Source of the DNA: an uncultured Candidatus Saccharibacteria bacterium
Lineage (GTDB): Bacteria > Patescibacteriota > Minisyncoccia > Phycocordibacterales > PALSA-1337
Direction of reading: 5' to 3'
DNA: 64,000 nt
Assembly (NCBI GenBank): GCA_964459225.1
Contig: CAYWKB010000001.1
Coordinates: forward strand, 289,318 to 353,317
In this document: piece by piece, positions 10,722-27,591 of the stretch
How the letters are laid out: each line of letters begins with the position of its first letter
Position numbering within the stretch: position 1 is the first letter of the stretch
Made by a program: the position numbers and the translations under genes
Notes under the pieces: generated by a model
What the model was told of the DNA's origin: nothing
The model's input: the letters and a program-made list of their open reading frames with translations, nothing else
Databases searched by the model: none

Positions 10722-11069
10722 ATGTCACGATCACTTAATAAAGGACCATACGTTGAAGAACGACTATTGAAAAAGATAGCCGGCAAAAAACCTACAGAAA
10801 CTGGGGTTATTAAGACATGGTACAGAAGAAGTCAAATTTCTCCTGAAATGGTTGGATTTATTTTTGGAGTATACAATGGACGTCAGCATATAGACGTTTT
10901 GGTTTCAGAAGAAATGGTAGGTCATAGACTTGGTGAATTTGCTCCAACTCGTAAATTCATAAGACATGGAGGTAAGATGCAAAAGGAATTAGAGCAAAAA
11001 GCAAAGGAAGCAGAAATGAATGCAGCTAAGGCGGCAAAGGAAGCTGTTGCATCTCCAGCTAAAAAATAA
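10722..11069 (+). CDS. rpsS: 30S ribosomal protein S19 (with Ala/Lys-rich C-terminal extension)
   Basis: [12 protein letters not shown] ... [29 protein letters not shown]19 motif; ~25-aa KA-rich tail. Confidence 0.9.
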
Positions 11070-11083
11070 TTTAAATAAATAAC

Positions 11084-11476
11084 ATGATAACCGCATCACT
11101 AAAAAACTATAGACAGTCACCAAGAAAGGTAAGAAGTGTGGCAAATCTCGTGCGCGGTAAATCAGTTGATAATGCATTAAACACTTTAACTTTCCTAAGT
11201 AAAAAGGCAGCTGATCCAATATTTGGACTTATCATGTCAGCTGTTGCAAATGCAAAAAATAATTTTCAAATAGAAAAGGACTCTCTTATCATAAAAGAAT
11301 TAAGAGTAGATGCAGGACAAGTTTTAAAAAGAAGAATGCCACGAGCACGTGGAAATTCATACCCAATTAATAAAAGAACAAGTCATGTTCTTATTGTCCT
11401 TGCACCAGCAGAAATAAAAGAAAAGAAGGCAAAAAAGACTGCTGTTAAAAAGGAAGTTAAAATAGAAAATAAATAA
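11084..11476 (+). CDS. rplV: 50S ribosomal protein L22
   Basis: 130 aa; L22-like (RQSPRKVRSVANLVRGKSV); operon order. Confidence 0.9.
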   Translation: MITASLKNYRQSPRKVRSVANLVRGKSVDNALNTLTFLSKKAADPIFGLIMSAVANAKNNFQIEKDSLIIKELRVDAGQVLKRRMPRARGNSYPINKRTSHVLIVLAPAEIKEKKAKKTAVKKEVKIENK

Positions 11477-21105: not shown

Positions 21106-22335
21106 ATGAATTTAGAAGATTTCAAAAAATTAAATTTACCAGATACTCCTGGGGTGTATTTTTTTAAGGATAATAATAAAAATATACTATATATAGGTAG
21201 AGCAACATCACTCTATGATCGTGTTAAGAGTTATTTTTCAAATGATTTAATACAGACTAGAGGACCGCTTCTTGTTGATATGATTACAAAATCAAATACT
21301 GTTGAATATATTCAAACAGATACTGTACTTGAGGCAATAATACTTGAATCAAATGAAATCAAAAAATATACGCCATACTATAATACAAAGGAAAAGGATA
21401 ATAAAAGCTATAACTTTGTAGTGATTACAGACGAAGAGTTTCCAAGAGTTATAATGGTACGAGGAAGGACTTTGGAAATCTTAAATGAAAAGGATTTGGG
21501 CTATAAGATTAAATATCAGTTTGGGCCGTACCCTCAAGGTAGTTTATTACGTGATGCCTTGAAAATAATAAGAAAAATATTTCCTTTTAGAGATGAAAAG
21601 GCAAAATTAAAACATCAAGAATCATTTTATAAATCACTTGGACTTTCACCAGATACAGAATCTCCAAATGCAAAAAAAGAATATCAAAGGACTATTAGAA
21701 ATCTTGTTTTATTTTTTGAAGGTAAAAAAGGTCAATTGATTAATACCCTTGAAAAAGAAATGAATGAATTTTCTTTGGCTCAAGATTTTGAAAATGCAAA
21801 AAAGACTAGAGATACGCTATATGCATTAACACATATTCAAGACATTTCACTTATTAAAAATGAAATTAATTTTGATAATACTGATAAAGTAGGGTTTAAA
21901 ATTGAATCATATGATATTGCTCATATGTCGGGTCAGGATACTGTCGGTGTTATGACTGTTGTTATTAATGGCGAAATAGAAAAGGGTCAGTATAAGAAAT
22001 TTAAAATAAGTATTGATGCAAATGATGATACTGCAGGGATAAAAGAAATATTAAATAGAAGATTAAAGCATAATGAATGGAGATTTCCTGATCTTATAGT
22101 TATAGATGGTGGACTCGGACAGATTAATTCAGCAAAAGAGGTTTTGAATAATTTAAATATTAATATCCCTATTGTTTCAGTTGTTAAAAATGATGCACAT
22201 AAACCAAGTTATTTTTTGGGTGATGAAGAAATGGCAAAAAAGTATACAAAAGATATTTTGCTTGCAAATAGTGAATCCCATAGATTTGCAATTGCTTATC
22301 ATAAGAAATTAAGGACTAAAAGATTTATTAGGTAA
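21106..22335 (+). CDS. uvrC: excinuclease ABC subunit C, short form lacking the C-terminal (HhH)2 domain
   Basis: 409 aa; GIY-YIG (PGVYFFKDNNKNILYIGRATSLYDRVKSYF), UVR motif, RNase H-like endonuclease region (DLIVIDGGLGQINSAKEVL); ends without an HhH domain. Confidence 0.72.
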   Translation: MNLEDFKKLNLPDTPGVYFFKDNNKNILYIGRATSLYDRVKSYFSNDLIQTRGPLLVDMITKSNTVEYIQTDTVLEAIILESNEIKKYTPYYNTKEKDNKSYNFVVITDEEFPRVIMVRGRTLEILNEKDLGYKIKYQFGPYPQGSLLRDALKIIRKIFPFRDEKAKLKHQESFYKSLGLSPDTESPNAKKEYQRTIRNLVLFFEGKKGQLINTLEKEMNEFSLAQDFENAKKTRDTLYALTHIQDISLIKNEINFDNTDKVGFKIESYDIAHMSGQDTVGVMTVVINGEIEKGQYKKFKISIDANDDTAGIKEILNRRLKHNEWRFPDLIVIDGGLGQINSAKEVLNNLNINIPIVSVVKNDAHKPSYFLGDEEMAKKYTKDILLANSESHRFAIAYHKKLRTKRFIR

Positions 22336-22428
22336 AAATGGACTCGTCGACTTGCGCTCGGGAGATATTTTTTCTTCAATTAATTTCAGAAAAAACACTC
22401 CCTCACCGTGCCGAGTCTCATTTTTACT
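22328..22428 (+). repeat. structured repeat element, copy 1 (conserved flanks, variable central hairpin, U-tract)
   Basis: 36-nt 5' flank taggtaaaaatggactcgtcgacttgcgctcgggag and 29-nt 3' flank ctccctcaccgtgccgagtctcattttta are identical to copy 2. Centre is hairpin ttttttct/agaaaaaa. P1 gactcg/cgagtc, P2 gggag/ctccc. Confidence 0.55.
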
Positions 22429-22463
22429 AATATTACTTCATTTCATCTGCTATAATATATCTC

Positions 22464-23429
22464 ATGCATAGAATACGTGTTGGAGTTTTGCGTGGAGGTC
22501 CGAGCAATGAATACGATGTGTCTTTAAATACTGGAGCTACTGTTCTTGGTAATCTTTCTCCTGAAAAATACAATGTAAAAGATATTTTGATAGATAAAAA
22601 TGGTGTCTGGCATTTGCATGGTATTCCTAGATTGCCTCATGAAGTACTTGCAAATCTCGATGTTGTTTTTAATGCTTTACATGGCGAATATGGTGAGGAC
22701 GGAAAGGTTCAACATATTTTGGAAACTCATGGCATTCCTTATACTGGTTCAAATTCATTTGCTTCTGCAATTGGAATGAATAAACAGATGTCAAAAGATG
22801 TTTATAAGAAAAATAATATCAAAACTCCTGACTCTATTCTTTTGGAATCTCTTTCTGATTTGAGTAAAAATGTTCATGAAATCTTTAAAAAATATCCTCT
22901 ACCTGTTGTGGTTAAACCAACTTCGGGCGGTTCATCTGTTGGTGTTGATCTGGTCTATGATTATAAATATCTAGATGATGCTATAAAAAAGGCATTTGAA
23001 CATTCTCGTTCTGTTATGATTGAAGAATATATAAAAGGTAGGGAAGCCACCTGTGGTGTTGTTGATAATTATCGTGAAAAAGATTTCTATACCTTACCTC
23101 CTATTGAAATTAGACATAATAATAAGTTTTTTGATTATGATGCTAAATATGGTGGTAAAAGTGAGGAAATTGTTCCGGGATATTTTACTGATGAGGAAAA
23201 AAGGGAAATCGAGAGATTGTCTGTTGAGGCTCATAAGGCTCTTGGTATGAGGCATTATTCTCGTTCGGATTTTATTATTCATCCTAGTCGGGGTATATTT
23301 ATTTTGGAGACTAATTCTCTACCTGGTTTGACTAAGGAAAGTCTTATTCCTAAGGCATTGCATGCTGTTGGGGCTTCTATTTCTCATTTCCTCGATCATA
23401 TTATTGAGCTTGCAATAAGGAGGAAATAA
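22464..23429 (+). CDS. ddl: D-alanine--D-alanine ligase
   Basis: 321 aa; ATP-grasp with N-terminal RIRVGVLRGGPSNEYDVSL typical of Ddl. Confidence 0.9.
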   Translation: MHRIRVGVLRGGPSNEYDVSLNTGATVLGNLSPEKYNVKDILIDKNGVWHLHGIPRLPHEVLANLDVVFNALHGEYGEDGKVQHILETHGIPYTGSNSFASAIGMNKQMSKDVYKKNNIKTPDSILLESLSDLSKNVHEIFKKYPLPVVVKPTSGGSSVGVDLVYDYKYLDDAIKKAFEHSRSVMIEEYIKGREATCGVVDNYREKDFYTLPPIEIRHNNKFFDYDAKYGGKSEEIVPGYFTDEEKREIERLSVEAHKALGMRHYSRSDFIIHPSRGIFILETNSLPGLTKESLIPKALHAVGASISHFLDHIIELAIRRK

Positions 23430-23460
23430 TGTAGAATAATTTTGTTCGGTTATATTGAGT

Positions 23461-23561
23461 CTAGGTAAAAATGGACTCGTCGACTTGCGCTCGGGAGTAC
23501 TTTTATTTGTTCGCAAGCTCAAAATAAAAGTCTCCCTCACCGTGCCGAGTCTCATTTTTAC
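23461..23561 (+). repeat. structured repeat element, copy 2
   Basis: Same flanks as copy 1; the centre is replaced by an unrelated hairpin acttttatttg/caaaataaaagt (loop ttcgcaagct) that preserves the fold. Confidence 0.55.
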
Positions 23562-23576
23562 AAAAAATAAACACAT

Positions 23577-23649
23577 GGGCCCGTAGCTCAGTTGGTAGAG
23601 CAATCGCTTTGCAAGCGAAAGGTCAGGAGTTCGAATCTCCTCGGGTCCA
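23577..23649 (+). tRNA. tRNA-Ala (anticodon UGC)
   Basis: Cloverleaf: acceptor gggcccg/cgggtcc with G3:U70 Ala identity pair, D-arm gctcagttggtagagc, anticodon loop ttTGCaa, T-arm aggag-ttcgaat-ctcct, discriminator A; CCA not encoded. Confidence 0.92.
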
Positions 23650-23663
23650 CAACTAAAGAAAAA

Positions 23664-23690
23664 GCTGGCACATGCCAGTTTTTTATTTTG
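23664..23690 (+). terminator. Rho-independent terminator after tRNA-Ala
   Basis: ctggca-ca-tgccag hairpin followed by ttttttatttt. Confidence 0.6.
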
Positions 23691-23798
23691 TCTTGGATCT
23701 TGAGATTAGATGAATATTATTAATAGTGGGTGTTAAAAAGATTAAATAGTTTTTGTATTTACTATTTAAAAATCACTCTCAATAAGTTATTTTCTAAA

Positions 23799-23827
23799 TT
23801 GACATCATTTAGATTATAGAACATAAT
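23799..23827 (+). promoter_or_regulatory. sigma70-like promoter for leader copy 1
   Basis: TTGACA-N17-CATAAT; the predicted start site coincides with the first base of the 104-nt repeated leader. Confidence 0.45.
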
Positions 23828-23831
23828 CCCC

Positions 23832-23935
23832 AACAGAATAGTCACCCAACTAAACTACATTATCTGAAAAGTTTTCATGATTTGTTGATTATGAAAATGG
23901 GAAAGTCCCTCAGAGGTGTTGTATGGGGTTAAAAT
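23832..23935 (+). repeat. 104-nt conserved 5' leader, copy 1
   Basis: Identical to 24680-24783 except one base (TAA vs TAC, 6 nt before the ATG). Contains hairpin ttttcatga/ttatgaaaa and SD-like GGGG 9 nt before the ATG. Identity begins at the predicted start site and ends at the start codon. Confidence 0.6.
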
Positions 23936-24559
23936 ATGGAATCGTCTTTTACCCGTGAAAGTATTTCCAGGTCTATAGACCAAGTGAGTCTAGAACTCCA
24001 GTCTAATTGGGGCTCAAGAAATAATTGTCGTCCCGGAGGATTTGCAAATGAATACTGCAGATTAATAAATAAAAGGGAGTCATTAAGTATTGCCTTCAAG
24101 GTTTTTGTCGCTCTGTTTGTGTTGTTTGCAATAGTGGCAATCATCTCAATTTTTAAGGGCGGCTCAATATGGTATATGGTAGTTACGATTGTCATTGGAT
24201 TGATAGCTTTGTGTTTATCTTGCTTGGTCGAATATACCGATCATGAACTTAATGAACTTATTTTATTGATAAAGCAATTCAATTCTGATTTTATTGATCT
24301 GATGATTCCTGTCAGTGTCAATAAGCCTATCGATAAACAGTATTTAATCGACCATGTGACATCACTAGCAATTGCGTGTCGTGAATGCATATCAGCTGGT
24401 GCTGGGCATCTTAACTTAACAGGTGATATTGATGAACAGATATTTATAATCCATAGAGCCACCGACCGCTACTGTAAAGCAGTTAACGGTGCTGCGAAGT
24501 TTGGTGTTAAAATAACCGGCGAAATGATCTCTTCGGGAATTGCCACCAGACATTCATGA
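23936..24559 (+). CDS. hypothetical membrane protein (two TM helices plus C-terminal soluble domain), paralog A
   Basis: 207 aa; hydrophobic segments FKVFVALFVLFAIVAIISIF and WYMVVTIVIGLIALCLSCLV; C-terminal FGVKITGEM motif shared with paralog B. Confidence 0.55.
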   Translation: MESSFTRESISRSIDQVSLELQSNWGSRNNCRPGGFANEYCRLINKRESLSIAFKVFVALFVLFAIVAIISIFKGGSIWYMVVTIVIGLIALCLSCLVEYTDHELNELILLIKQFNSDFIDLMIPVSVNKPIDKQYLIDHVTSLAIACRECISAGAGHLNLTGDIDEQIFIIHRATDRYCKAVNGAAKFGVKITGEMISSGIATRHS

Positions 24560-24570
24560 CTCTCACCTCG

Positions 24571-24615
24571 GTTTTTCAATCAGTCCCTGTGCTAGTAGAA
24601 ACTAGTACCGGGACT
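24571..24615 (+). terminator. Rho-independent terminator after paralog A
   Basis: cagtccc...gggactg extended stem followed by ctttttatt. Confidence 0.55.
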
Positions 24616-24646
24616 GCTTTTTATTATCATGAATGTATAATGTATC

Positions 24647-24675
24647 TTGACAATACCACATAAAGACAGTATGGT
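24647..24675 (+). promoter_or_regulatory. sigma70-like promoter for leader copy 2
   Basis: TTGACA-N17-TATGGT ending just 5' of repeat copy 2. Confidence 0.45.
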
Positions 24676-24679
24676 ATTT

Positions 24680-24783
24680 AACAGAATAGTCACCCAACTA
24701 AACTACATTATCTGAAAAGTTTTCATGATTTGTTGATTATGAAAATGGGAAAGTCCCTCAGAGGTGTTGTATGGGGTTACAAT
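24680..24783 (+). repeat. 104-nt conserved 5' leader, copy 2
   Basis: See copy 1. Here the leader mini-ORF MKMGKSLRGVVWG reads through (TAC) in frame into the main ORF, so the maximal ORF starts at 24730. Confidence 0.6.
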
Positions 24784-25344
24784 ATGGGCAAGAAAATTAA
24801 TTTAGCTAAATTCAAAGTAGCACTAGACCGAATAGACTCTGAGCTAGTCAGGATATGGAATGAAAAATACAGTTGCGACTTGAAAGATCTTCCCAGGCGG
24901 TATAATGATTGTAGGGCAAAGAGATCTGAATTTAAACTTAAAGAAGGAAAACGGATTTTCTTCATCGTGCTCACTTTTTTCCTTACTATGTATTTTAAAG
25001 GGAATAGTTATGAGCCATCATTGCCGGCGTTTCTGTCTGTGTCCGCCTGTATCATCCTGTTTCTTGAATGGCTCCTTTTTTCTCAAAGCATAAGCATAGA
25101 AAAAAGGAATCTGACAGAAAGCCTTGAAAGAACAGAGCTCATGATCAAAAATTTCATATTCGCTGTGAATTCACTGCTTATTGCAGACCCAGTTGCGATA
25201 ACTACGCAGACAATAATACAACGTGCGAGAGAGATTCATAATAATTTCTCTGAGAATCAAATAACTATAAACAGAGCATACATATGCTTTGAAAGATCAG
25301 CTGAGTCATTTGGTGTTAAGGTCAGTGAGTTGACTCTAAAGTAA
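24784..25344 (+). CDS. hypothetical membrane protein, paralog B (start at position-equivalent ATG; in-frame extension to 24730 possible)
   Basis: Same architecture as paralog A (2 TM: IFFIVLTFFLTMYF and AFLSVSACIILFLEWLLF; C-terminal SFGVKVSELT) but strongly diverged. Confidence 0.5.
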   Translation: MGKKINLAKFKVALDRIDSELVRIWNEKYSCDLKDLPRRYNDCRAKRSEFKLKEGKRIFFIVLTFFLTMYFKGNSYEPSLPAFLSVSACIILFLEWLLFSQSISIEKRNLTESLERTELMIKNFIFAVNSLLIADPVAITTQTIIQRAREIHNNFSENQITINRAYICFERSAESFGVKVSELTLK

Positions 25345-25426
25345 AATGTCCCAATTTCCACAACCCCTTGTTTGGTAGAATCCAGGCAAGGGGCTTGTCT
25401 TATGTATAAAAGTGATATTTAAGACT

Positions 25427-25467
25427 TGTCAATACACTATTGACATAATTATTATTTAGTGTATAGT
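25427..25467 (+). promoter_or_regulatory. palindromic operator overlapping a sigma70-like promoter
   Basis: Perfect inverted repeat TGTCAATA-cac-TATTGACA whose right half supplies the -35 TTGACA; N16 then TATAGT; SD AAGGAG before ATG 25542. Confidence 0.45.
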
Positions 25468-25541
25468 ATTTTTCAGGTGGATCTTAAAAGAAGTTTGAGG
25501 TCCAGTGAAATAGAACAGATAAATCTAACTTTAAAGGAGTT

Positions 25542-25766
25542 ATGGAATTCGAAAGTATATTTATTATTGCAATCGTATCTGCAATTACTATTGTTAAAGT
25601 CACCAAGATTGTTTTTGAAAAAAAGGAGACAAATGTATATGATTCACAATGTGAGAGTTATAGGGCGAGTTCTGCGGCTGAGATAGAGAAGATTAAAGCA
25701 GATGCCGCAGTTGAGATCGCCAAACACCAAAAGGTGTGCGCAAAGTGTGGTGGAAGCCTACAATAG
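25542..25766 (+). CDS. small hypothetical membrane protein (74 aa)
   Basis: Good SD AAGGAG; N-terminal TM IFIIAIVSAITIVKV; C-terminal CAKCGG; own promoter and terminator. Confidence 0.45.
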   Translation: MEFESIFIIAIVSAITIVKVTKIVFEKKETNVYDSQCESYRASSAAEIEKIKADAAVEIAKHQKVCAKCGGSLQ

Positions 25767-25791
25767 GGAAAACCACCACACTCCAACCACA

Positions 25792-25840
25792 AAGCCCCAG
25801 ACAACTTGCTTGTCCTGGGGCTTCCGCTTTTGTGATTTTT
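25792..25840 (+). terminator. Rho-independent terminator
   Basis: aagccccag/ctggggctt stem followed by T-rich ccgcttttgtgattttt. Confidence 0.55.
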
Positions 25841-25938
25841 ATGTTACATTTTGTTAGGTTCAGTTCCTAACCTATTCCATATGTTCCACGTATGGAATGA
25901 AATAAAGAGGTTAACAATCAAAGAGAAAGGAGGTAAAA

Positions 25939-26130
25939 ATGGAAAAAATAATCCAAGTAGAGGAATTTGAAGCCGATATGTCGGATGGCGAAGTGGCCAT
26001 TAGCAGTTCTGAGTCCGATTCGGCAATGACCGAGATTACAGACATCCAGTCTTTGTGGCTCGCTGTGTGCTACCCAGAATACATTGCTGGTAGGAATGCG
26101 CGGAAATTGCGCCATAAAAAAATCCCTTAA
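25939..26130 (+). CDS. small acidic hypothetical protein (63 aa)
   Basis: Very strong SD AAAGGAGGT 5 nt before the ATG; D/E/S-rich N-terminal two thirds; basic tail RNARKLRHKKIP; upstream hairpins; own terminator. Confidence 0.5.
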   Translation: MEKIIQVEEFEADMSDGEVAISSSESDSAMTEITDIQSLWLAVCYPEYIAGRNARKLRHKKIP

Positions 26131-26163
26131 ACACCCATAACCTAGTATGAAAAAAGACTAGAA

Positions 26164-26194
26164 AACACTTCGCTTCTGCGAGGTGTTTTTGTTG
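26164..26194 (+). terminator. Rho-independent terminator
   Basis: aacacttcgc-ttct-gcgaggtgtt (one G-U) then ttttgttg. Confidence 0.55.
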
Positions 26195-26228
26195 TATAAT
26201 AAAACAATTAATCTTTAATTTAATATAA

Positions 26229-26609
26229 ATGAATAGAGTTACACATTTTGAAATACAAGCTGATGATATTGAAAGAGCCACAAATTTTTATAGCGAAATT
26301 TTTAATTGGGAAATTAAAAAATGGGATGGTATGGAATATTGGATGGTGATGACAGCTCCAATGGATAGCACTGAAAGAGGGATAAATGGAGGATTATTAA
26401 AAAGGCCAGCGAATGTAAAAGAATTGCAAAAAGGCACAAATGCTTACGTATGTACAATTGAAGTTTCTGATTTTGATAATATTGCAGATAAAATATTAAA
26501 AGCGGGAGGAATTGTGGCTATGCCAAAATTTGATATAGGAGGTATGGCATGGCAGGGATATTTTATAGATACAGAAGGAAATACATTTGGATTGCATCAG
26601 AGGAAATAA
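26229..26609 (+). CDS. VOC/glyoxalase-bleomycin resistance family protein
   Basis: 126 aa; N-terminal VTHFEIQADDIERATNFYSEIFNWE typical glyoxalase-like fold. Confidence 0.72.
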   Translation: MNRVTHFEIQADDIERATNFYSEIFNWEIKKWDGMEYWMVMTAPMDSTERGINGGLLKRPANVKELQKGTNAYVCTIEVSDFDNIADKILKAGGIVAMPKFDIGGMAWQGYFIDTEGNTFGLHQRK

Positions 26610-26640
26610 AATTAGACCCACATTTCTTACGAATGGGGGT

Positions 26641-27201
26641 CTAAATGATTGTCTCCTTTTGGGAGACTTTACCGTCTTCATCTATTATGAGATTGGTTTG
26701 GTCATTGTTCCCAAAAAATCTCCAGAAATCATCTCGCTGTCTCCATGCTTTACCAAGAAATCTGAAATGATCGCAAGTACCTATCACCTTTATCCTTCCT
26801 TCTCTTGTTAAATAAAAATGATTAAAAGGGAAGGATAATGTTGTGTGTGTCTGAATTATGGGTAAATCCTCAGGATCGCTTACCCATTCAAACCCAACCC
26901 TCTTTCTTCTTATACTGAGAATTGTCTGCAATGGCCTACAATCCATTCTTTGCCAGGATATAAAATCCTTTCTGCTTTTAGGATAATTACCCTCATATGC
27001 CCAATTAAGATGAACGGTTATGATTTTACCAACACTATCTAAAACTGGTGCTTCTGAAAGTTCACCTCTCATTATATTTTTACCATGATTCATTTGAACT
27101 TGTATTGGTTTAAGTTCATTGAATAGTCTTTGTAATTCACATGGATCACGTTGGTCCTTGTGCAGACCTGTAATAGATCGCTTTTTGAACATATCTCTCA
27201 C
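26641..27201 (-). CDS. hypothetical protein (divergent from the LexA-box region)
   Basis: 186 aa; no motif recognised; start lies ~125 nt from the LexA box on the opposite strand. Confidence 0.5.
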   Translation of the reverse strand: MRDMFKKRSITGLHKDQRDPCELQRLFNELKPIQVQMNHGKNIMRGELSEAPVLDSVGKIITVHLNWAYEGNYPKSRKDFISWQRMDCRPLQTILSIRRKRVGFEWVSDPEDLPIIQTHTTLSFPFNHFYLTREGRIKVIGTCDHFRFLGKAWRQRDDFWRFFGNNDQTNLIIDEDGKVSQKETII

Positions 27202-27319
27202 CTCCTCTCAATTGTTAATTGTTTGTGCTGTTCGACGACATTATATCATCTAAATAATTTTCAAACAGTGATTTTTTGTGTTGTAATTGTATTTTATGCC
27301 AGTTATCCACAATATTTAA

Positions 27320-27348
27320 TTGCAGGTGAACGACTGTTCACTTATAAT
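27320..27348 (+). promoter_or_regulatory. LexA (Cheo-type) SOS box overlapping a sigma70-like promoter
   Basis: gtGAACgactGTTCac palindrome (GAAC-N4-GTTC) at 27326-27341, immediately followed by -10 TATAAT (27343-27348); -35-like TTGCAG 17 nt upstream. Confidence 0.55.
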
Positions 27349-27381
27349 ATAAATACATTAGAAATATTAATTTTTATAAAT

Positions 27382-27591
27382 ATGAGTAAAATACAATTAG
27401 CACAAAAAATTAGAAAAGAAATAAAAAAGTTAAACAGGGAAATAGATCTTAAGATTATAAAAGGTCTACCATACAAGGCAGAGGCAAGACGCCATAAGTT
27501 TCTAGTATCACAGTTTTATGGATTCTATGAAACTCAAAAGGCAAGTTGGTTCAAAAAGACGGTATACAGTTTGGCGAGCTTTATGTTATAA
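27382..27591 (+). CDS. small basic hypothetical protein (69 aa) in the LexA-box-driven transcript upstream of lexA
   Basis: ATG 34 nt downstream of the SOS-box promoter; MSKIQLAQKIRKEIKK...; ends 9 nt before the lexA ATG. No homolog recognised. Confidence 0.4.
   Translation: MSKIQLAQKIRKEIKKLNREIDLKIIKGLPYKAEARRHKFLVSQFYGFYETQKASWFKKTVYSLASFML

Follow-up and report, generated by a model that had tools for sequence, protein, structure and literature searches.

Two neighbouring genes in a stretch of DNA from an uncultured Candidatus Saccharibacteria bacterium (contig CAYWKB010000001.1, positions 289,318 to 353,317; the whole 64,000-nucleotide (nt) stretch is called the window hereafter) raise the question of why a short non-coding leader should be almost identical in front of two membrane-protein genes that have little sequence in common. 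Gene A (23936..24559, plus strand) encodes a helical protein of 207 amino acids (aa) with a long hydrophobic helical hairpin (two transmembrane (TM) segments) and a C-terminal FGVKI motif. Gene B (24784..25344, plus strand) encodes 186 aa when read from the start in the context AATATG (annotated as 199 aa from the ATG at 24745) and is the most divergent member of the family described below. An earlier note, made from the sequence alone, held that such a pattern implies selection on the leader or recent conversion, and that it fits a shared RNA regulatory element or a variable membrane-protein family. Both selection and conversion appear to apply, and we concluded that the leader probably represents a new element of gene control, though a very rare one.

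Pairwise alignment and a repeat finder delimited a single direct repeat of 108 nt (23832-23939 and 24680-24787) that is identical at 107 of 108 positions, in line with the one substitution reported by the earlier note; the sole mismatch is A at 23933 in copy 1 and C at 24781 in copy 2. Copy 1 forms the 5' untranslated region (UTR) of gene A (23832..23935, plus strand; 139 bits with covariance model R1) and copy 2 that of gene B (24680..24783, plus strand; 137 bits). A 100-nt pattern with <=3 mismatches detected no third copy in the 64-kb window (chance expectation 0). The identity ends in ATGG, start codon included, and the coding sequences of A and B diverge immediately beyond, so that the earlier note had placed the downstream boundary correctly. 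Its other boundary, said to lie exactly at the transcription start, is only approximate: the identity begins 5 nt past the -10 box, ~2-3 nt ahead of the usual start-site position. Each leader is preceded by its own promoter, as had been proposed, with TTGACA-N17-CATAAT for gene A (23799..23827, plus strand; 11/12 consensus matches) and TTGACA-N17-TATGGT for gene B (24647..24675, plus strand; 10/12), and the two rank among the best sigma-70-like sites of the region. Upstream of the repeat, the two promoters are unrelated in pairwise alignment except for the -35 box.

This repeat fragments short-read assemblies, as can be seen in Logan contigs from independent runs of the same strain, in which the breaks fall exactly at the repeat. 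One contig begins at 24680 and another at 24750, which is the first 31-mer with the TAC variant (the TAA to TAC change brought about in copy 2 by the C at 24781). Because these independent contigs break at the repeat and carry TAC, the two copies and their single difference are not an assembly artefact.

The coding sequences had been described as clearly homologous. Compared directly, A and B are 21% identical (BLASTP, E = 0.26), and the pair by itself is no proof of homology; the family relationship nevertheless stands, since a profile of A and two further proteins, P0003 and P0004, matches B along its whole length (hhalign probability 94%, E = 1e-7). From this profile match, A and B are very distant paralogs of a family with four known members. 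P0003 (about 30-31% identity to A, E = 7e-12) and P0004 (22%, E = 1e-6) were the only true relatives of A in an exhaustive phmmer search over 1.84 billion representative proteins, which brings the family to four members of 186-218 aa among those representatives; one eukaryotic repeat protein among the matches was judged spurious. Queries with A, B and the four-sequence profile against 5.8 billion clusters gave only the window proteins and P0004. P0003 is encoded on contig L076 (1.4 kb, from a Joint Genome Institute (JGI) metagenome) and P0004 on contig L077 (1.9 kb, from a Logan assembly); an open reading frame (ORF) upstream in L076 was considered as a further paralog and rejected (hhalign probability 0.2%). 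All four proteins carry an N-terminal W..(K/R)(N/Y) motif and a C-terminal (A)xxFG(V/I)(K/V) motif, and the FGVK motif noticed in A and B is common to the family. The AlphaFold2 model of A is all-helical (mean predicted local distance difference test score, pLDDT, 86.5), with two ~40-residue helices making the hydrophobic hairpin, and the prediction places both domains of the protein in the cytoplasm. In A and P0003 two TM segments are supported by hydropathy, and the first is weaker in B and P0004; the two-TM architecture ascribed to both window genes is therefore clear in A and less so in B. The description as a variable membrane-protein family fits four very divergent members in a variable island. 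Among the known two-TM defence effectors in PADLOC there was no significant profile match outside the TM segments.

Both L076 and L077 bear the same promoter and leader directly upstream of the genes for P0003 and P0004. Between genomes the leader is 79-83% identical (90/108 for A-L076 and 90/108 for A-L077), while the coding DNA of the family genes is 35-51% identical (saturated) and the proteins 17-35%; the 60 nt upstream of the promoter are 25-53% identical and the 80 nt downstream of the stop codon 37-58%. The glyoxalase homologue downstream in L077, which shares 85% nt and 87% protein identity with that of the window, is 66% identical at third codon positions. The A-L077 leader is more conserved than these third positions (45/68, p = 0.01), than the upstream 60 nt (33/62, p = 4e-5) and than the 3' 80 nt (p = 4e-9). 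The leader has thus been kept before homologous genes in other genomes beyond the neutral expectation, and where the earlier note had named a lack of leader conservation elsewhere as speaking against it, the leaders of both outside members turned out to be conserved. No copy differs in the two blocks TCACCCAACTAAACTACA and GGGAAAGTCCCTCAG, and the variable sites cluster at the top of a hairpin and between a G-run and the ATG. The form of the gene A promoter with trailing CCCC recurs in L076 and L077 (TTGACA-N17-CATAAT-CCCC, then the leader) and is ancestral-looking in this comparison. Identity from -35 to -10 is 72-93% among A, L076 and L077 and 45-55% for B versus the others; by these alignments the homology of the gene B promoter to the other three is limited to the -35 box.

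The 3' ends of the same transcripts provide an internal reference. All four family genes end in homologous terminators, a 12-bp hairpin with the conserved loop TAGAA(A/T/G) followed by a T-run: in the window at 24583..24624 for A (plus strand; loop TAGAAA then T-run) and at 25364..25403 for B (plus strand; loop TAGAAT), and outside it at ~1352-1390 of L076 and ~1483-1520 of L077. Compensatory double changes were found at 7/12 stem pairs, and 0/500 shuffles reach the observed covariation. As the terminator stems have turned over across the same divergence, there has been ample time for change, yet the leader has remained unchanged; and since the stems changed freely and the leader barely, the constraint on the leader is on its sequence and not merely on its folding. 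The alignments show that the leader is conserved at the sequence level across genomes while coding sequences and terminator stems turned over. This sequence constraint points to specific recognition of the leader by a protein, an RNA or a ligand, and the conserved loop suggests that something recognises the terminator too. Purifying selection on the leader, as a cis-regulatory element common to all family members, is well supported by these comparisons.

The leader has a very narrow distribution. An exact leader 30-mer had 0 matches in genome and metagenome collections, and a gapped two-block pattern had 0 matches in metagenome and viral contigs. A 17-mer core gave 8 matches in viral contigs, all of them attributed to chance (covariance model <= 18.5 bits), and blastn against phages and plasmids returned nothing meaningful. 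Covariance model R1, run across the window and 23 related Patescibacteria loci, detected only the four known leader copies.

Selection between genomes does not account for the near-identity of the two copies within the genome. Of the four proteins B has diverged most (17-20% identity to each of the others), and A is nearer to P0003. Since the B protein is the outgroup, the A and B leaders would be expected, without homogenisation, to differ by at least the 17% seen for A-L076; they differ by 1%, and the A-B identity of 107/108 exceeds the 90/108 of A-L076 (p = 4e-5). We infer that gene conversion or recent recombination has kept the A and B leaders 99% identical. The 1% difference, the unrelated promoter of B and the sharp edges of the identity argue that the exchange was limited to the transcribed leader. 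The locus thus displays concerted evolution restricted to a 108-nt untranslated tract.

Such exchange could also be the main explanation. The leader at the 5' side and the terminator at the 3' side might serve mainly as homology arms for swapping, converting or deleting variable coding cassettes, within and between genomes, in which case frequent recombination, and not regulatory constraint, would have kept the leaders alike. A direct repeat of 108 nt is of sufficient length for RecA-type exchange, the 99% identity with sharp edges sits on the most divergent protein pair, and the genes lie in a variable tRNA-adjacent island with different content in every relative; moreover, L077 has one family gene beside the same glyoxalase where the window has two family genes and two extra ORFs. 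However, leaders from different genomes differ by 17-21%, and the differences are scattered non-randomly around invariant blocks, which argues for selection and not for recent transfer. The terminators are too diverged (37-58%) for homology arms, no recombinase or integrase was seen near the locus, and with a promoter of its own on each unit there is no apparent expression-site logic. We regard a recombination anchor as an unlikely main cause of the leader identity.

What does the leader do? The earlier note drew attention to a short ORF inside it, and the mini-ORF is present as described: copy 1 contains MKMGKSLRGVVWG followed by a stop codon, and the TAA to TAC change of copy 2 opens it in frame into the main ORF of B. 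In the NCBI annotation, B (P0002, 199 aa) begins with the second ATG of the mini-ORF, at 24745. If translated, the mini-ORF might regulate the downstream gene as a leader peptide or, in copy 2, lengthen the protein, and both the in-frame junction and the annotated 199-aa form would agree with this. The peptide is not conserved, however. In L076 the mini-ORF has another frame relative to the main ATG and a different tail, while L077 lacks its ATG and has lost 1 nt, which changes the reading frame over an invariant block; for these reasons a leader peptide is unlikely. Furthermore, no Shine-Dalgarno-like sequence precedes the mini-ORF, and its ATGs lie within the 3' arm of the hairpin. All four family proteins align from the conserved AATATG start, from which gene B has 186 aa, and the annotated 199-aa start is probably wrong. 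Neither leader contains a terminator-like structure, the hairpin being followed by GGGAAAG and not by a U-run. Attenuation by a leader peptide or control by an upstream ORF was rejected, as the leader has no conserved short ORF and no terminator/antiterminator alternative. Taken together, a role for the mini-ORF, as leader peptide or as N-terminal extension, is hardly credible.

The earlier note also proposed a shared RNA element. The hairpin that had been pointed out, TTTTCAT...ATGAAAA, is present in the leader with 9 bp (one G.U included) and can be extended to 12 bp. When the three distinct leaders were folded independently, the same three-way junction was the minimum free energy structure of each, and it is also the RNAalifold consensus of the leaders. 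In the alignment 95% of cells are paired in register, compared to 43-48% when the partners are slid. About 7/12 substitutions in the stems keep pairing, mostly via G.U (our own count; binomial p = 0.04); because G.U pairs work on the sense strand only, this favours conservation at the RNA level. An RNA element is therefore plausible from a fold predicted in all copies, and the earlier proposal is tempered by the lack of a database match, of covariation and of strong folding scores. A cmscan of 22000-27500 with Rfam 15 and permissive filters found only the tRNA-Ala, and no match overlapped either leader at E <= 10.

Several observations weigh against a structured RNA regulator. The leader comparison rests on three independent sequences (four copies from three sources), and with three distinct sequences compensatory double changes were found at 0/32 predicted pairs, shuffles being equal to the observed value. 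The fold z-scores are weak (-1.5, -0.1 and -2.0). The accessibility of the ribosome-binding site, calculated as the mean predicted unpaired probability from -15 to +3, is 0.28-0.47 in the leaders versus 0.48 +/- 0.12 in 12 control genes of the window; only that of copy A falls below all 12 controls, and sequestration of the Shine-Dalgarno sequence as a strong thermodynamic signal was rejected since the values are within the control-gene range. In the model, most of the 18-nt block that varies least is unpaired, and structure accordingly does not explain its conservation. The L076 hairpin contains two adjacent U.U mismatches, and its inner part is not strictly kept. The palindromic half-sites TGAAAA-G-TTTTCA ... 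TGAAAA in the leader DNA would suit a DNA-binding repressor equally well. On the protein side, Pfam, PADLOC, PHROGs and NCBIfam contain no family for A and B beyond weak matches to the TM region, and solved structures gave no informative fold match for a family protein.

The half-sites make the case for a DNA operator, in which the conserved blocks past the start site would be kept as DNA and would bind a transcription factor acting on all family members as repressor or activator. The primary sequence is conserved from the -10 box on, with CATAATCCCC also kept in 3/4 copies, and there are three occurrences of the half-site TGAAAA/TTTTCA, one of them forming the 13-bp palindrome TGAAAAGTTTTCA. 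In the hairpin, the outer half-sites show no variation, whereas the centre is variable and its complementarity is not strictly retained, and the leader pairs do not covary. On the other hand, the island has no evident regulator gene, the leader lacks the local LexA box (GAAC-N4-GTTC), near-continuous conservation over ~100 nt is long for a single operator, and the palindrome is imperfect (TGAACA) in L076 and L077. Substitutions in the stems favour G.U, which is compatible with the sense RNA, over A.C. A DNA operator appears to us rather improbable, though it deserves consideration.

Another possibility is that the invariant 5' part of the leader is a target for pairing, either with an antisense RNA made from a minus-strand promoter inside the leader or with a small RNA acting in trans, an arrangement resembling the way in which type I toxin-antitoxin systems keep a toxic membrane protein in check. 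Inside each leader, the minus strand has a promoter-like site, TCAACA-18-GATAAT (23888-23859 and 24736-24707; a consensus match only), with equivalents TCGACA-18-GATAAT in L077 and TCGACG-18-GATGGT in L076; a transcript from it would span the invariant 5' block. That the site is kept in all leader copies, that a minus-strand terminator lies downstream of copy 1 (23678-23665) and that the product is a membrane protein all agree with this view. However, the site matches the consensus at only 9/12 positions in the window, within the range of shuffled sequence (28 sites found versus 17.5 expected in the region), copy 2 has no minus-strand terminator, and no complementary sequence occurs elsewhere in the window. 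The proteins have ~200 aa compared with the <60-aa peptides typical of type I toxins. A pairing target of this kind is very unlikely, and type I toxin-antitoxin in the strict sense was rejected on protein size (186-218 aa) and on an antisense promoter that is a mere 9/12 match.

Three other regulatory or diversifying classes were considered and rejected. Membership in the SOS (LexA) regulon would require the lineage box GAAC-N4-GTTC, which is absent from the leaders and has its single window match at 27328. A diversity-generating retroelement does not agree with repeats that are non-coding, lie 5' of the genes and carry one mismatch, the divergence of the coding sequences being outside the repeat; no reverse transcriptase was found by Pfam scan among the ORFs of 23.9-28.2 kb, the rest of the window having been read as translations only. 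Integron-type cassettes are inconsistent with a strong promoter and a terminator on each unit, and there is no integrase among the neighbouring ORFs.

The best reading of the locus, in our judgement about evenly balanced between right and wrong, is a cis-regulatory 5'-UTR module that is restricted to one lineage and belongs to a fast-evolving gene family. On this reading each gene is a self-contained unit of promoter, ~105-nt 5' UTR, highly variable two-TM coding sequence and conserved-loop terminator. The units form a tiny, fast-diverging family confined to a few Paceibacteria-type Patescibacteria and are located in the variable island between tRNA-Ala and lexA. That the leader acts as RNA, more likely than as a DNA operator, is again a proposition to which we would assign a middling confidence. 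In the mechanism that we propose, the leader transcript would fold into a three-way junction composed of CUGA/UCAG, the UUUUCAU...AUGAAAA hairpin and a GGGA/UCCC mini-hairpin, and an ACCC:GGGU helix would close the junction and engage the weak G-run ribosome-binding site; both steps are weakly supported by the folding model. A trans factor (protein, RNA or small ligand) would recognise the invariant G-poor 5' segment together with the junction and so set the translation of a potentially harmful membrane protein. Gating of translation through the ACCC:GGGU helix is a working guess and a tentative one. A bolder version is doubtful: the leader may be a previously undescribed sensing RNA for a ligand or a protein, specific to a small Patescibacteria clade and forming one system with the terminator and the hypervariable two-TM cassette. 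Equally doubtful is the companion idea that the regulatory ends stay constant on either side of a coding body that conversion or the exchange of cassettes diversifies. If true, such a system may serve, for example, in phage defence or in the interaction with the host cell of these episymbionts.

Genes A and B are housed in a variable island of ~3.7 kb (window 23651-27384) between tRNA-Ala(TGC) (23577..23650, plus strand; ARAGORN, and 71 bits with the Rfam tRNA model), which forms its left edge, and the orf69-lexA operon. The order uvrC-ddl-tRNA-Ala(TGC) is conserved, and in three relatives (L002, L004 and L006) orf69-lexA(-ppa) follows 3.3-3.9 kb past the tRNA. The content of the island is unrelated in every genome compared (L002 11093-14741; L004 11101-14359; L006 11112-14972); that of L002 encodes a 1154-aa repeat-rich surface protein, and a minus-strand ORF of the window (26641-27201) is weakly similar to L004 12944-13414 (E = 1e-4). 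The closest relatives of the neighbouring ddl are found in Patescibacteria metagenome-assembled genomes (MAGs) labelled Taylorbacteria, Paceibacterota or 'Saccharibacteria', the best being 82% identical. The neighbouring ORFs showed no integrase or recombinase, and a duplicated tRNA 3' end, as an attachment (att) site at the far end of the island, was sought in the window and not found. Three MAG contigs (L001, L003 and L021) end within a few bases of the tRNA. Upstream of the cassette in L077, positions 190-215 read GTCCACAACTTAATAAAAG, which resembles the tRNA-Ala 3' end and the next bases of the window (23641-23665, GTCCACAACTAAAGAAAAAG) and could be a remnant att-like duplication. In L001, the closest relative, the ddl-tRNA spacer (10960-11155) contains two partial copies of the tRNA-Ala 5' end (beginning GGGCCCGTAGCTGTT) before the real tRNA.

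Several features of the surroundings were recorded in passing. The gene after B encodes 74 aa with one TM segment and a C-terminal CxxC, and has a strong promoter (TTGACA-16-TATAGT, 11/12, at 25426-25469) within an inverted repeat, TACACTA...TAGTGTA, that is operator-like in appearance; a strong promoter likewise stands right after the terminator of the family gene in L076 and L077. The Gram-positive-type LexA box GAAC-N4-GTTC at 27328-27339 lies between the -35 (TTGCAG) and -10 (TATAAT) boxes of a promoter region (27310-27350) and precedes the conserved 69-aa ORF (orf69) upstream of lexA; it is conserved in four genomes. The orf69-lexA promoter is nearly invariant in L002, L004 and L006, and L002 apparently carries it twice. 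A different repeat of ~107 nt, with arms 89-93% identical, occurs just after uvrC (22329-22435) and just after ddl (23462-23569); it folds into a long hairpin (z = -5.4 and -6.4) with the ends GTAAAAATGGACTCG...CGAGTCTCATTTTTAC. The uvrC-ddl spacer of L001 holds only the two ends of this repeat, a pattern that looks like an empty site or a deletion of the element. Judged from its sequence, the repeat may be a palindromic element like a miniature inverted-repeat transposable element (MITE) or a repetitive extragenic palindrome (REP), or else a bidirectional terminator. The Logan ddl contig L088 (1157 nt; unaligned) has about the length of the stretch that separates the two copies, as would fit an assembly break at the ~107-nt repeat.

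Among known systems, the closest analogy is found in Borrelia. Marconi and colleagues in 1996, and Sung and colleagues in 1998/2000 (all cited in PMC10016077), reportedly described the 'upstream homology box' (UHB) families ospE/ospF/elp (= erp) and recombination between their members. The UHB families are divergent paralogs with a shared conserved upstream module. The likeness lies in divergent, membrane-associated paralogs behind a conserved upstream non-coding module with its own promoter or operator, and the present case, with four genes from three sources, is UHB-like in having such a module common to divergent paralogs within and between genomes, by functional analogy. Unlike the UHB, which has no sequence or host relationship to this leader, the module here is a transcribed leader with no known binding factor, whereas the UHB region consists of DNA operators for known proteins. 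UHB genes encode lipoproteins on cp32 prophage plasmids present in many copies per cell, whereas here two chromosomal copies encode a two-TM protein without signal peptide.

In the vsp/vlp/vsa families of Mycoplasma, genes arranged in tandem have almost the same 5' non-coding (and signal) region but very different bodies. The point of resemblance is that the 5' part evolves in concert, and the loci are unrelated in sequence. Those genes phase-vary via promoter repeats or inversion by a dedicated recombinase, neither of which was seen here, and their conserved part enters the coding region whereas the identity in the window stops at the ATG. Type I toxin mRNAs such as tisB, zorO and hok have long structured 5' UTRs that keep translation off. 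They share with our locus paralogous membrane-protein genes with highly conserved long leaders, but encode <60 aa under a demonstrated antisense or divergent small RNA, compared with ~200 aa, two soluble helical domains and an antisense promoter that is just a weak consensus match. Translational riboswitches and protein-binding 5'-UTR elements resemble the leader in being promoter-proximal, ~100 nt long and predicted to form a multi-stem junction, with invariant nucleotides in junction or single-stranded parts, a variable peripheral stem and a closing helix touching the ribosome-binding site. They differ from it in that the leader has no Rfam match (E <= 10), no covariation and no known ligand, with three examples and an uninformative context. 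Viewed as RNA, the leader would be a new candidate motif with a very narrow distribution, of the same general kind as familiar 5'-UTR regulators.

With four known copies the element is extremely rare, and its wider impact would stay limited without the discovery of further members or of a ligand. A comparison of the parts of one transcript is nevertheless instructive: the leader is frozen, the terminator stems covary freely and the coding sequence is saturated. To our knowledge, almost nothing is known about gene regulation in Patescibacteria (bacteria of the Candidate Phyla Radiation, CPR). A leader that stays >80% identical while the coding sequence behind it falls to ~20% protein identity provides a clean candidate for a lineage-specific regulatory element.

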